This document shows, in pieces, positions 40,841 to 47,503 of a stretch of 64,000 bases of DNA. The notes under the pieces are model-generated. The model was not told where the DNA came from. It saw only the letters and a program-made list of their open reading frames with translations, and did no database searches. The stretch is taken from NCBI RefSeq assembly GCF_003334785.1, contig NZ_QOWV01000012.1; one strand, given 5' to 3'. This DNA comes from Escherichia coli (GTDB lineage Bacteria; Pseudomonadota; Gammaproteobacteria; Enterobacterales; Enterobacteriaceae). Position numbers and translations under genes: made by a program. Position 1 is the first letter of the stretch. Every line of letters starts with the position of its first letter.

Positions 40841-41785
40841 ATGACAAACTTCACGACCAGCACGCCGCATGACGCATTGTTTAAATCTTTTCTCACGCAT
40901 CCGGATACCGCGCGGGATTTTATGGAGATCCACTTACCTAAAGATTTACGTGAACTGTGCGATCTCGACAGCTTAAAACTTGAATCCGCCAGCTTTGTCG
41001 ATGAAAAATTGCGGGCGCTACATTCCGATATTCTGTGGTCGGTAAAGACCCGCGAAGGCGATGGCTATATTTATGTGGTGATTGAACATCAGAGCCGCGA
41101 GGATATTCATATGGCCTTTCGCCTGATGCGCTATTCTATGGCGGTGATGCAGCGCCATATCGAGCATGATAAACGCCAGCCGCTACCGCTGGTCATCCCG
41201 ATGCTGTTTTATCACGGTAGCCGTAGTCCTTACCCCTGGTCCCTGTGCTGGCTGGACGAATTTGCCGACCCGACTACCGCACGGAAAGTTTATACCGCCG
41301 CGTTCCCGCTGGTGGATGTCACTGTCGTGCCAGACGACGAGATTGTGCAGCACCGCAGAGTCGCTCTGTTGGAGTTGATCCAAAAGCATATTCGCCAGCG
41401 CGATCTGATGGAGCTTATCGATCAACTGGCAGTATTACTGGTTACAGGGTGCGCTAATGACAGCCAGATAACCGCGCTGTTAAATTACATTTTACTGACT
41501 GGCGATGAAGCGCGTTTTAAGGCGTTTATCAGCGAACTTACCAGGCGAATGCCACACCACAGGGAGCGAATAATGACAATTGCAGAGCGAATTCATAATG
41601 ATGGATGGCTGTTGGGAAGGGAGAAAGGGAAAGAAGAAGGGGAACAGCGCCTCCTCCGATTGTTGTTGCAGAATGGGGCAGATCCTGAATGGATACAAAA
41701 GATTACCGGACTTTCGGCAGAGCAAATGCAGGCATTAGAGCAGCCCTTGCCTGAAAGCAAGCGCGAACCATGGATCGAATACTAA
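40841..41785 (+). CDS. rpnD: recombination-promoting nuclease RpnD (YhgA-like PD-(D/E)XK family), intact 314-aa frame
   Basis: Single uninterrupted [69 protein letters not shown]...; YhgA-like family features. Confidence 0.75.
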
Positions 41786-43781: not shown

Positions 43782-44277
43782 GGGGGGATATAAATTTATA
43801 TAATAAAACGTTTTTATGTTTTTAAATTAAGTTATAAAAATTTTCCCGAGACTATTCATCAATAGGTATGGAGTGTACAGGAATATCTTCTTCACTAACC
43901 TCTTTAAACTCATGTCGATAATGGTCAAAAAACGCACAGTGATTACTTGTGTTTTTTGACTGACTTTACAACTCTCATTATTCGCTATTGTGAAGTTTCT
44001 CTAATTGTTTTATATCCTGGAAAGTTAAATGTTAGTTACTGCATACTTTTTTATTTTTTGAGATTTATTTTCATTTGAAATTATAAAGTCAGGTGATAAA
44101 TGAGTTGTGATTAATAGATAGTTGATATCATTTTTATCTAAAATTGATTTATGGTGCCGACCTGAAAAATTAGCTATTGCCGCCTGATTAATTATACGAT
44201 ATTTTTAAAGGTTTTCTTTCAAATTAGAAATATTCTGGGGTTTTGTTTTTGTATCTTTTATCTCTAAGGAGCTTGCT

Positions 44278-47043
44278 TTGGGTCAATCAGAATACATTTC
44301 ATGGGTAAAATGTACTTCCTGGCTAAGTAACTTTGTGAATCTTAGAGGGTTGAGACAACCGGATGGCCGTCCTCTTTATGAATATCATGCAACCAATGAT
44401 GAATATAACCAATTAACGCAGCTACTCCGTGCAGTCGGTCAATCACAATCTAATATATGTAATAAGGACTTTGCTGCCTGTTTTGTTCTTTTTTGCTCTG
44501 AGTGGTACCGCAGGGATTATGAACGGCAATGCGGATGGACGTGGGACCCTATATATAAAAAAATAGGGATTTCATTTACCGCCACAGAGCTTGGTACCAT
44601 CGTACCGAAAGGGATGGACGATTACTGGCTGCGCCCAATTCGATTTTATGAATCTGAACGACGCAATTTTCTCGGAACATTATTCAGTGAAGGTGGTTTA
44701 CCTTTCCGGTTACTCAAAGAATCAGACAGTCGCTTTCTGGCTGTTTTCTCCAGGATCCTTGGACAATATGAGCAAGCAAAGCAGTCAGGTTTTTCTGCCC
44801 TTTCGCTGGCAAGAGCCGTCATAGAAAAATTAGCGCTGCCAACTGTTTTTAGCGAAGATACTTCTGTAGAACTTATCAGTCATATGGCTGATAACCTCAA
44901 TTCCTTAGTACTTACTCACAACCTAATAAATCACAAAGAACCAGTACAACAGCTTGATAAGGTTCACCCTACCTGGCGAAGCGAGTTTCCAATACCGTTA
45001 GATGATGAAACAGGAACGCATTTTTTGAATGGACTGCTATGCGCAGCCTCTGTAGAGGCTAAGCCTCGACTACAAAAAAATAAGAGTACGCGTTGCCAAT
45101 TCTATTGGTCAGAAAAGCATCCAGATGAGCTTAGGGCGATAGTATCTCTCCCTGACGAAGTTTCCTTTCCTGTAACAAGCGAGCCGTCAACTACGCGCTT
45201 TGAACTTGCCATTTGTGAAGATGGTGAGGAAGTCTCTGGCCTTGGGCCAGCTTATGCTTCCCTGGAAAACAGACAGGCAACAGTTCGATTACGTAAAAGC
45301 GAAGTGAGATTTGTCAGGCAAAATCCATCGGCAGGTTTGTCGTTAGTGGCTCGTGCTGGAGGGATGATTGTTGGGAGCATTAAACTTGATGACAGTGAAA
45401 TTGCCATTGGTGAGGTGCCGTTAACCTTCATCGTTGATGCAGATCAATGGCTGTTACAGGGACAGGCCTCCTGTAGTGTGCAAAGCAGCGATGTTCTGAT
45501 TGTGCTCCCTCGGGACAATAGTACTGTTGCTGGTTTTGATGGCCAATCGAGTGCAGTAAACGTATTAGGACTTGTCGCTATGACTCTGGCGGTTGCTCTG
45601 CGTCAGGCGCTAGCGGGCGTTCTGGGTATCTCCGGCGCAGAACTCGGCTATTCTGTACGCCCGGTCAGACTGGAGGATGGGCAATCGGTATTAGCCGTTC
45701 AGCTTTATGATGTGATCAGCGGTGGTGCAGGTTTTGCCTCCAGCGCACCGGTACACATTGAAGCTATTTTGCAGGGAATGGTGAAACAGTTAGGTTGCCG
45801 CCATTGTGATACTGCATGTAGTGAATGCCTGCTTGATTCCCAGACTCGCCACGATCACGATTTGCTGGATCGCAAAGCGGCGCTGGCCTGGCTTGGCGAT
45901 GACTTCACGTATTACATCGGTTTACCGGATGAAGAGACATTCTCGCTGCCGGATGCCCGCTACTGCCCTGGCGCTATTGGCGATACGATTCGCCGGGCGA
46001 TTAACGAAGGCGCTGAAAAGCTCACCCTGTGGATGACCGGCGCGCCCAATGAGTGGGATTTATACGCCCGTCAGTTCCGCGCGGCGGTTCAGAGCTATCG
46101 GCTAAAAGACAACGTCGAGGTCGATCTTGTTATACCTGCGGGAGTGGATGACCCGGATCTGTTGTATGAACTATCGCAATTTACTGCGCTGGGTGTGCGG
46201 CTGTGCCATGTTGAACAGGATCTGCAATTGCCGATCGTTGCCCAGGTTACCTTTGCCGATCGCGTGATGACGCTGGCTTCTCGCAGCCAGCAGGCAACGA
46301 TTCCGGGGCCGGAGTGGCACCTGAATGACGAACTGGTGGTGCGTAGTCTCGGTTATAAAACGGTAGAACTGAACGAGTTTATTCTGCCGGCTAAAGCCGC
46401 CAACGCTGTCGAGCGGGTCAAAGACATTCAGATCCACAAACAGTTGAATGGACCACTTTCGCAGTTTGGACAACGCTTCTGGGACGTGCTGTTTAACGAC
46501 CATGAAGAAGCACAGTCACTGATGAATAACACGCGAATTACCGGCGTTCACTATACCGATCGCTATCTGCAAAACCCGGTTGCGCTGGCGTTGTTGGGAT
46601 CAATTCTGAGACCGCTAAAAACAAAGCTGACCGATGGCGCTGAAGTGGCGCTGGATACGCTGTTTAAAGATAAAGATCGCCCCGGTAACCGGCCTTTCCA
46701 TGACTGGATGAGCATAGCGGATTTTCAGGATTTCGCTGATCAGTGGTTTGCTGCTGCGCTGGGCAGGCCGATAGAACTAACGGTGTTCGACTCGCCGCGC
46801 GATATCCCTCACCATCGTAAACTGACGGTGACTTTTGAGGATGGTCAGGTTTTGAAGATCCGCTTCGATCAGGGGATGGGCTACTGGCGTATCAACTTTG
46901 CATCGCAATGGCATTACTTTGACTTCCGCGATGACGTTTCTTTCCAGTTAGTCAAAATGGCTCAGGCCTGCAATGAAGGAAATGTGGCCAACAGCGAAGA
47001 GAGCTGGGCAACGGATGTGCTGGTGGAGGTGAGCGCCTCCTGA
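44278..47043 (+). CDS. orphan 921-aa protein of the immigration-control region; contains GG-x-G plus C-x2-C-x3-C-x2-C motif (DUF1998/MZB-like zinc ribbon); function unknown, candidate defence protein
   Basis: Long uninterrupted ORF; TTG start 6 nt after AAGGAG; motif [13 protein letters not shown]...[34 protein letters not shown] at nt ~45715-45830; occupies the slot where K-12 carries yjiT/yjiV and mcrBC. Confidence 0.8.
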
Positions 47044-47050
47044 TGATGTG

Positions 47051-47082
47051 CCGCTCCCGATGTGGTGTCGGGAGCGTTTTTC
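47051..47082. terminator. intrinsic terminator hairpin between the convergent 921-aa ORF and symE
   Basis: gctcccga-tgtggtg-tcgggagc stem-loop followed by TTTTT on the plus strand. Confidence 0.55.
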
Positions 47083-47085
47083 CAT

Positions 47086-47427
47086 TCAGGCAACTTTCTG
47101 TTTACCGGCAATCACCCCAATAAATTCCTGCACCTGCTTTTGTTTACGCGCCGACAGCTTGCACACCCTGCGCAGCGACTGCATCAGTTCGCTCTCTTCG
47201 GCGGCGGGTGGTTGAGCGGTGAGGACGATGCAGCCTTCCATCACTTTGACATCTACCGCCGTGCCGGTGGCAAAACCGGCGGCTTCCAGCCACTGACCTT
47301 TCAGGGTGATGGCGGGAATATGCGCGTGATCCGGGTAGCGGCTCGCATAACCGACGGTGACATGACGGTTATTTGCCGGAGAGACTTCTGCTTCGAACGG
47401 TTGTGCAATAGAATACGTGTCAGTCAT
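47086..47427 (-). CDS. symE: SOS-induced toxin-like endoribonuclease SymE
   Basis: [74 protein letters not shown]...; 113 aa from the internal Met. Confidence 0.85.
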
Positions 47428-47497
47428 AACTGCTATTCTCCGATAATAGTGATTGTGATGAGCGGTGCGGGTGTGTTGGCGCACATCCGCACCGCGC
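47420..47497 (+). ncRNA. symR: cis-antisense sRNA SymR (position inferred, boundaries approximate)
   Basis: In K-12 SymR is encoded opposite the symE start/5'UTR; here an inverted repeat gcggtgcgg...ccgcaccgc at 47462-47496 lies in the corresponding position. Confidence 0.4.
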
Positions 47498-47503
47498 TAA
47501 ATA

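Follow-up and report, generated by a model that had tools for sequence, protein, structure and literature searches.

Does the long open reading frame (ORF) that lies between yjiS and symE in this Escherichia coli genome encode a defence protein in its own right, or does it descend from a system that is already known? The window, by which we mean the whole stretch of 64,000 nucleotides that was analyzed, had previously been read by eye without database searches. The ORF was then described as an orphan and a single-gene defence candidate of uncharacterized function, situated in the mcrBC slot of the immigration-control region. Its location in the immigration-control region is supported, but the slot is a different one. 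The ORF occupies the yjiT-yjiV (Druantia III) slot, and the mcrBC slot is empty (Table 1; window positions 47076 and 47090 correspond to L001 positions 24561 and 27176). E. coli CT02, which carries the intact-Druantia parent haplotype, is likewise without mcrBC. Part of the E. coli population carries the Druantia operon in the interval from yjiS to symE.

The ORF listing of the window has one unbroken frame at 44278..47043 (+), encoding 921 aa. Listing and sequence together confirm what the sequence-only reading had said of it, namely 921 uninterrupted codons and a TTG start 6 nt beyond an AAGGAG SD sequence (44266-44271). The AT-rich leader, which had been put at about 500 bp, is 496 bp long and has a G+C content of 28%, compared with 49.6% for the window. 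A sigma-70-like scan of the leader gave one weak match (44115-44144) versus 5.7 expected by chance, and a count below chance provides no usable evidence for a promoter or for expression. The hairpin terminator that had been noted beside convergent symE is also present (an 11-bp stem with a T run); it is located between the ORF stop codon and the 3' end of symE, which it abuts directly. In MS20675, an identical hairpin follows druE, and mcrCB comes next. The Rfam scan of the 42-49 kb part of the window found symR alone and nothing tied to the ORF. The symE coordinates come from the near-identical locus of MS 124-1, which differs from the window by 1 nt in the fused ORF. The symE/symR pair (47086..47498) is context and lies outside the relic discussed below.

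Table 1. Coordinates, in the window, of the fused ORF segments and of neighbouring features.
Feature	Position	Strand	Remarks
druH/yjiT upstream region	43782..44277	+	AT-rich; from yjiS to the start codon; holds the SD AAGGAG
druH (yjiT-family) segment	44278..45572	+	codons 1-432 of a gene that normally has 1096 codons
Deletion junction	45572..45573	+	2-nt 'TT' microhomology; frame kept; 6,882 bp of parental operon gone
druE segment	45573..47043	+	codons 1626-2114 and stop of a 2114-codon helicase gene
MZB/DUF1998 (MrfA Zn-binding) domain	45589..45831	+	residues 438-518; PF09369 E 1.7e-8, positions 2-80/80
Intrinsic-terminator-like hairpin	47052..47076	+	11-bp stem followed by TTTTT; druE 3' end
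Empty mcrBC slot	47077..47089		about 13 bp; ~2.6 kb mcrC-mcrB of K-12/MS20675 missing
symE	47086-47427	-	RefSeq annotation of the MS 124-1 locus, mapped by offset
symR antisense RNA	47422-47498	+	Rfam RF01809, 89.5 bits

As judged from profile and structure matches, residues 1-432 of the protein are the N-terminus of DruH and residues 433-921 are the C-terminus of DruE. On the DruH side, residues 1-437 match positions 1-437 of the 1100 positions of PADLOC DruH3 (PDLC00049, E 3.5e-214), residues 15-431 match positions 1-417 of the 1090 positions of NCBIfam YjiT_fam, and residues 14-258 match residues 12-251 of the solved DruH (9tud). The segment holds the N-terminal globular domain and the start of the Ig-like array, whereas a full-length DruH (~1100 aa) consists of a globular NTD, an Ig-like array and a CTD with an ssDNA/ATP site. 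On the DruE side, residues 432-918 match positions 1564-2054 of the 2055 positions of PADLOC DruE3 (PDLC00037, E 1.7e-129), and the druE-derived part matches residues 1611-2089 of the solved DruE (9tu7, E 1.7e-34). This segment holds the Zn-binding module and the C-terminal PLD-like region. Descent from druH and druE is thus seen in both profile matches and in the nucleotide sequence, which is identical to the CT02 operon minus a deletion at 2765 of 2766 positions. On the basis of homology to the intact genes and the solved structures, the domain content of the chimera is already fixed. PGAP assigns a family name because the score against the YjiT family NF038336 (STY4851/ECs_5259) is 503.3, above the cutoff of 150, yet positions 1-417 of 1090 alone are matched. 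The arrangement of two adjacent genes, druH then druE, is present in CT02 and MS20675, and is replaced in the window by a single fused ORF. An apparent query coverage of 86% by the DruH homologue P0028 had raised the idea that the C-termini of DruH and DruE are homologous. Beyond residue 432, however, the BLASTP alignment was a low-identity, gap-rich over-extension, and we rejected homology of the two C-termini.

The parent state of the fused ORF exists base for base in E. coli CT02, which shares the haplotype of the immigration-control region and has intact druH (1096 aa, WP_016239407.1) and druE (2114 aa, WP_000213434.1), both with full-length matches to DruH3 and DruE3. In a three-way breakpoint comparison, removing 6,882 bp (3 x 2294) from the CT02 sequence yields the window ORF, with 1 nt difference over 2,766 nt. 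The druH part is identical to CT02 druH at 1294 of 1295 nt, and the druE part to the 3' end of CT02 druE at 1471 of 1471 nt. Among the flanks compared, 878 bp upstream, the AT-rich leader included, and 1,957 bp downstream, all positions are identical. Comparison with MS20675 gives the same junction.

We regard this origin as shown. A single illegitimate deletion of 6,882 bp between two 'TT' dinucleotides took out codons 433-1096 of druH, the spacer between the genes, and codons 1-1625 of druE. With druH and druE in the same reading phase and a deletion that is a multiple of three, the fused DruH(1-432)::DruE(1626-2114) frame is open; from druH it retains the upstream region, SD and start codon, and from druE the terminator. 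The deletion is recent and took place within a Druantia type III operon whose two genes were intact. The chance prior of an in-frame outcome is about 1/3. The breakpoint falls approximately inside the first Ig-like region (257-464, Wu et al. numbering), with only residues 14-258 aligning confidently to 9tud. An opposite course of events, in which the 6.9 kb would be an insertion in CT02-like strains, is contradicted by full-length DruH and DruE homologues across Enterobacterales and beyond. An assembly artefact was ruled out, as the junction is identical in 21 complete assemblies that were made independently, in different laboratories and on different platforms.

The four cysteines that had drawn attention to the ORF are genuine. 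CRHC (residue 507) and CSEC (residue 514) form C507-x2-C510-x3-C514-x2-C517 (nt 45796-45828), and all four line up with cysteines of the solved DruE. The assignment to an MZB/DUF1998-like domain agrees with the Pfam search of the ORF protein, in which MZB was the sole domain found. The earlier statement that no helicase motif is visible also holds, as regular-expression searches found neither Walker A nor DExH/DEAD motifs in the ORF. In the parental DruE, TGSGKT (residue 127), DEAH (residue 264) and the Pfam DEAD domain (residues 106-310) are all within the deleted part. The absence of the motifs is thus due to deletion of the helicase, and not to membership of a family without helicases. The ORF has no SF2 helicase core of the kind that defines Druantia III DruE (TGSGKT, DEAH, RecA1/RecA2).

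No PLD match was found in the Pfam search of the ORF protein, and no canonical PLD catalytic motif (HxKx4D). The sole HxK in the ORF is H846-R-K848, which is followed by acidic residues at +5/+6 (LTVTFED) rather than by D at +5 only; at the aligned position, the solved DruE has H-G-R-E. The DruE PLD-like domains were described as lacking the canonical motif and as dispensable for defence (Hu et al., 10.64898/2026.05.12.722862). A second study considered the second (last) PLD domain potentially active and reported DNA cleavage by DruE (Wu et al., PMC13192584). Given the latter study, the fragment may conceivably retain some nuclease activity.

What can such a protein still do? We consider it highly likely that the ORF is a recent deletion relic of the Druantia type III druH-druE operon, unable to defend and decaying neutrally, and the fusion is very probably a dead remnant. 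It may still be transcribed and translated, yet it would be unable to perform Druantia defence. Of DruE, the SF2 helicase motor is gone, as are the dimerisation region (Cap/PD) and the OB fold; of DruH, the ssDNA- and ATP-binding site of the Ig array and C-terminus is gone. The function of the parent system can no longer be called uncharacterized, as Druantia III was the subject of structural and genetic dissection in 2025-2026 (10.64898/2026.05.12.722862; PMC13192584). In a homologous E. coli Druantia III, deletion of druH or druE abolishes defence, and so does each of the following: mutation of DEAH, deletion of the DruE PD subdomain, or removal of DruH's C-terminal remainder. The position of the ssDNA/ATP site is between Ig5 and the CTD, and removal of the PLD-like domains leaves defence unaffected (10.64898/2026.05.12.722862). 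K121A and D251A abolish defence too (PMC13192584). From this distantly related homologue, and not from its own clade, we infer that the chimera has lost defence. The distance to the tested homologue is reflected in a phmmer E-value of 1.7e-34 for the DruE C-terminus, and DruH aligns over its N-terminal ~250 aa only. This distance counts against the interpretation as a relic, and so do other observations: the ORF is open and has its native upstream region, SD and terminator, so that a protein could be made, some junction copies are still uninterrupted (5/21, see below), and DNA cleavage by DruE was reported (PMC13192584).

The junction is present in 21 of 5,426 complete E. coli genomes. In 16 of these copies, the fused gene is further broken by IS600/IS30, IS3-family or ISEc52 elements, and 5 copies are uninterrupted. 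The uninterrupted copies differ by three SNPs, all nonsynonymous. Because the deletion is so recent, the absence of a decay or selection signal in the uninterrupted copies is uninformative either way. A 44-nt junction-spanning probe matched 105 genomes, each at a single place. The ORF is not an orphan, since hundreds of homologues were found for each half in a search of 5.8 billion proteins, and copies are already named in RefSeq. In that search, the full length was covered by the ORF's own 90% cluster only, all other matches covered one half, and the DruH-N::DruE-C architecture was not found in any other taxon. RefSeq labels some identical or near-identical copies 'STY4851/ECs_5259 family protein' and splits others into two partial pseudogenes. 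It has an ordinary CDS in four genomes, and PGAP annotates two partial pseudogenes for the copy in E423, which is different by 2 nt.

Decay of the operon is not confined to this junction. Among 673 complete E. coli genomes with any Druantia III operon sequence, 232 hold at least 80% of it in one piece. At least six independent operon lesions were identified: the window deletion, the K-12 double deletion, GmM062, BL21, an inversion plus IS66 in an ETEC strain (ETEC-2265), and P0002, which is an independent in-frame DruH::DruE fusion.

Three other interpretations were weighed against neutral decay. The reading that we started from, an intact stand-alone defence or restriction protein built on DUF1998/MZB and native to the slot, could appeal to a genuine MZB domain, to a defence-island setting next to hsdRMS and symE, and to the ordinary CDS in RefSeq. 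It is already refuted by near-isogenic CT02, where a two-gene parent has the 6,882 additional bp exactly at the junction, and we give it next to no credence. Its halves map to two different families, both truncated, PGAP splits the E423 copy, and no full-length homologues exist elsewhere in the protein search. A neo-functionalised chimera is very improbable, though slightly less so. In such a chimera, the DruH NTD, as a proposed sensing or DNA-contact surface, would be joined to the DruE Zn module and PLD-like nuclease domains to give a helicase-free minimal effector. The preserved frame, the native expression signals, the complete MZB domain and the independent in-frame fusion in P0002 would fit this idea, as would DNA modelled on the DruH N-terminal helices and a potentially active last PLD domain (PMC13192584). 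The in-frame prior of about one in three, the IS-disrupted copies in 16 of the 21 junction genomes, the exclusively nonsynonymous SNPs and the confinement to one 90% cluster argue against it. Moreover, the breakpoint is within the Ig-like array and not in a domain linker (by the approximate mapping), and the PLD-like domains lack HxKx4D, with H-G-R-E in the solved DruE, and are dispensable (10.64898/2026.05.12.722862).

We give a marginally smaller chance to an interfering fragment, that is, a chimera without defence of its own that would act as a dominant-negative or decoy on Druantia, on another YprA-type system, or on a phage anti-defence protein directed against the N-terminus of DruH. The fusion does keep the DruH NTD and the DruE C-terminal domains, and the DruE CTD was reported to mediate higher-order assembly, with loss of defence in assembly mutants (PMC13192584). 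However, the region examined showed no further DruH/DruE copy, each of the 105 probe-matching genomes has a single matching place, and the fused gene is often disrupted by IS elements, which speaks against its being maintained; the proposal is pure speculation. It is similarly very doubtful that the fusion is expressed from the native druH promoter with an activity of its own, be it as a DruH-NTD-guided, helicase-independent Zn-module/PLD-like nuclease or as a decoy that titrates phage anti-Druantia factors. If this were true, large defence genes would give rise through internal deletions to new compact effectors, and not only to pseudogenes.

With the operons of CT02 and MS20675, the window ORF shares nt 1-1295 as druH and nt 1296-2766 as the druE 3' end (1 mismatch to CT02). 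It also has its upstream region, start codon and terminator in common with them, at the same place in the chromosome; it differs in lacking the helicase core, Cap/PD/OB, and DruH Ig2-6/CTD, and in having one fused gene instead of two. The K-12 pseudogenes yjiT'/yjiV' are remnants of this operon as well, situated at the same locus (97% nt identity), and they too keep the DruH N-terminus and the DruE C-terminus with its MZB domain. K-12 arose through different deletions, of 3,018 bp and 2,183 bp, and has an internal stop; more of both genes is kept, the remnants are out of frame or annotated as a pseudogene, and mcrCB, absent from the window, comes next. The proposal that the ORF might be an intact relative of K-12 yjiV was thus right as to the relationship with yjiT/yjiV, and wrong as to intactness, given the 6,882-bp deletion relative to CT02.

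EcDruIII of ATCC 8739 (PDB 9tu7-9tuc for DruE, 9tud for DruH) is homologous at ORF residues 14-258 (DruH NTD) and 433-896 (DruE Zn module and PLD-like region), with the four Zn cysteines aligned. In contrast to the window ORF, it belongs to a distantly related Druantia III clade; both proteins of the system are complete and the helicase is active, and defence needs exactly the parts that are deleted in the window. YprA/MrfA helicases and DISARM DrmB have the MZB Zn-binding module in common with the ORF, which itself has no helicase domain. DrmB/DISARM models gave no match at E <= 0.1 in PADLOC, where the best matches were all DruE or DruH. The TIGR03817 DECH-helicase model was matched with E 6.9e-5 and 21.3 bits versus a cutoff of 874, over its C-terminal 69 positions only.

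Together, the above observations identify the ORF as a pseudogene-like relic of an already known system. The main value of the finding is in annotation hygiene, as a truncated two-gene fusion is carried in RefSeq as an ordinary family protein, and a reading based on domains (MZB in a defence island) suggests, wrongly, that a new single-gene system is present. For phage work, strains with the window allele (LR-64-2, MS 124-1, NCTC9087 and others) are to be scored as Druantia-negative. The locus also illustrates the rapid decay of the Druantia III operon in the immigration-control region of E. coli, in a series of which K-12 yjiT/yjiV are a part.

The protein encoded between yjiS and symE had been called an orphan in the sequence-only reading, but both of its halves are assigned by PADLOC to type III Druantia, a known two-gene anti-phage system. 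Residues 1-437 matched DruH over profile positions 1-437 of 1100 (E = 3.5e-214), in agreement with the NCBIfam model YjiT_fam/STY4851 (positions 1-417 of 1090 aligned to residues 15-431), and residues 432-918 matched DruE over positions 1564-2054 of 2055 (E = 1.7e-129). The protein thus divides cleanly into two unrelated halves, each a cut-down form of a far longer protein. On re-inspection of the window, the reading frame, TTG start, AAGGAG, AT-rich leader (496 bp from yjiS to the start, 28% G+C versus 49.6% window-wide), cysteines and hairpin were each found again, which confirms the earlier description of the sequence. The cysteines (C507, C510, C514 and C517) all lie within the Pfam MZB match, and this domain is genuine; as also described, no Walker A or DExH/DEAD motif was found in the 921 residues. 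The proposed likeness to DISARM DrmB and to YprA holds for the shared zinc module and for nothing beyond it, and the PADLOC search returned no match of the fused ORF to any DrmB model at E <= 0.1.

Features of the fused ORF, its neighborhood and related loci (window coordinates unless stated otherwise)
Feature	Position	Strand	Remarks
Fused ORF, single open frame	44278..47043	+	921 aa, TTG start; ORF listing
AAGGAG	44266-44271	+	6 bases 5' of the TTG start
MZB/PF09369	residues 438-518 of fused ORF		Pfam, E 1.7e-8, whole model (positions 2-80/80)
ISEc52	44912-44916		NCTC9038
IS600/IS30 complex	~45012-45014		RM10410, NCTC9100, E2 group
IS3-family element	45575-45583		E2 group
Hairpin + T-run	47052-47076		between fused-ORF stop codon and 3' end of convergent symE
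Empty mcrBC slot	47077-47089		mcrBC cassette absent; druE hairpin abuts symE 3' end
symR antitoxin RNA	47422-47498	+	Rfam RF01809, 89.5 bits, full-length
314-aa ORF	40841-41785	+	upstream of yjiR
ETEC-2265 loci (L013/L014)	4844382-4845956 and 4959060-4969866		NZ_CP023346.1

Intact forms of the operon are found at the same locus in other strains. In MS20675, yjiT/druH (1096 aa) and the DEAD/DEAH helicase gene druE (2114 aa) are followed by mcrCB, symE and hsdS, and BLASTN showed the window to be collinear with this arrangement to druH codon 432 and to pick up again at druE codon 1626. Strain CT02 is closer still: its YjiS, YjiR, SymE, HsdS and HsdM proteins are the same as those of the window, the compared flanks are identical (878 bp upstream, 1,957 bp downstream), and its intact druH and druE both match DruH3/DruE3 over their full length, with a Pfam DEAD helicase domain at DruE residues 106-310. 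The CT02 locus is a near-isogenic parent of the window allele. Apart from a clean deletion of 6,882 bp, a single base sets the window ORF off from CT02: T554 in the window versus C in CT02, which gives L185 instead of S. T554 is private to the window among the uninterrupted copies checked; LR-64-2, with 100% identity to the window across the 4.1 kb in question, presumably has it as well. The breakpoints have only 'TT' in common, which points to an illegitimate, microhomology-mediated deletion as the event that joined druH to druE. Because both the distance from the druH start to the druE start (3,303 nt, 3 x 1101) and the length of the deletion (3 x 2294 nt) are multiples of three, the fusion remains in frame, a result expected by chance alone in one third of cases. 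That the ORF is a recent, deletion-derived DruH::DruE fusion is virtually certain.

Lost with the deletion are residues 433-1096 of DruH, the 12-bp intergenic spacer and residues 1-1625 of DruE, among them TGSGKT at residue 127 and DEAH at residue 264. DruH is left with its N-terminal globular domain (homologous to residues 12-251 of the solved DruH 9tud) and some 170 residues from the Ig-like array; DruE is left with its zinc-binding module and its PLD-like C-terminal region, which together are homologous to residues 1611-2089 of the solved DruE 9tu7. The sole HxK of the chimera is H846-R-K848, and the aligned residues in the solved DruE are H-G-R-E, so no canonical PLD catalytic motif was evident by motif inspection and alignment to that structure. 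Essential parts of a homologous E. coli Druantia III have been mapped in two 2026 preprints (10.64898/2026.05.12.722862; PMC13192584). Defence was abolished by deletion of druH or druE or mutation of DEAH (10.64898/2026.05.12.722862), by deletion of the DruE PD subdomain (K683-N753) or Cap-interface mutations, and by the helicase-pocket substitutions K121A and D251A (PMC13192584); Ig5 and the C-terminal domain flank the ssDNA/ATP site of DruH. Set against the extent of the deletion, these mutants suggest that the chimera would lack every part shown to be essential and keep parts reported as insufficient or dispensable. This step is made by homology, because the characterized system belongs to a different, distantly related clade.

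Among 5,426 complete E. coli genomes searched with a 44-nt probe across the junction, 21 carry it. The fused gene is uninterrupted in five (MS 124-1, LR-64-2, 364_BP0073, NCTC9087 and E423, the last annotated by PGAP as two partial pseudogenes); taken together, these five copies show three differences from the window, each of them nonsynonymous. The other 16 copies have later IS lesions, most of them in the E2 group of 13 mainly poultry strains. In a search of 5.8 billion proteins, full-length coverage was confined to the chimera's own 90% cluster. The remaining matches cover one half, being either DruE fragments or DruH proteins of about 1095-1100 aa, the latter spread over many Enterobacterales and also found outside that order, and thus no family has the fusion architecture. 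Neither the junction-bearing genomes nor the protein search gave a sign of selection keeping the fusion. That it is expressed and has a new or interfering activity is very improbable. Absence of a defence function is highly likely: the fused ORF is, with high probability, what remains of an already known system, Druantia III, and no longer functional.

The locus is indeed the immigration-control region, as had been proposed. The fused ORF occupies the Druantia slot and not, as first read, that of mcrBC, which is empty. Since mcrBC is absent both here and from CT02 with its intact Druantia, Druantia III and mcrBC vary independently in this region. The symR RNA lies antisense to the symE 5' end. 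Counterparts of the 314-aa ORF are annotated in near-identical loci as 'Rpn family recombination-promoting nuclease/putative transposase', and the counterpart in the K-12-like CY708 is a pseudogene with an internal stop.

The suspected kinship to K-12 yjiT/yjiV was borne out, although the fused ORF is no intact relative: it descends from the same parent and retains less of it. Comparison of a K-12-like locus (L002, NZ_CP068279.1, 6881-11322) with that of MS20675 (L001, 14881-24528) revealed two other deletions in yjiT'/yjiV', of 3,018 bp (16389->19407 in MS20675 coordinates) and 2,183 bp (21556->23739); these pseudogenes are the same Druantia III operon, shortened internally by the two deletions. 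MG1655, W3110, MC4100 and others share the 46%-coverage pattern of the K-12 form. Some part of druHE is present in 673 of the 5,426 genomes, with at least 80% in one place in only 232, some of which also contain IS3-family insertions. Several independent lesions exist beyond that of the window: GmM062 has two further deletions, BL21 has lost all but the final 3.35 kb of druE, and in ETEC-2265, whose haplotype in this region is that of the window, a ~120-kb inversion splits druH, the 5' part of which now adjoins paeA, and druE has in addition an ISCro1 (IS66-family) insertion. Match coordinates place the same split in ETEC strains 120899, 602354, 103605, 204446, 504237 and TW10722. Finally, P0002 (1023 aa, Logan assembly) is an independent in-frame DruH(1-393)::DruE(~1473-2114) fusion in a haplotype 97-98% identical, which shows that deletions joining druH to druE in frame occur repeatedly.
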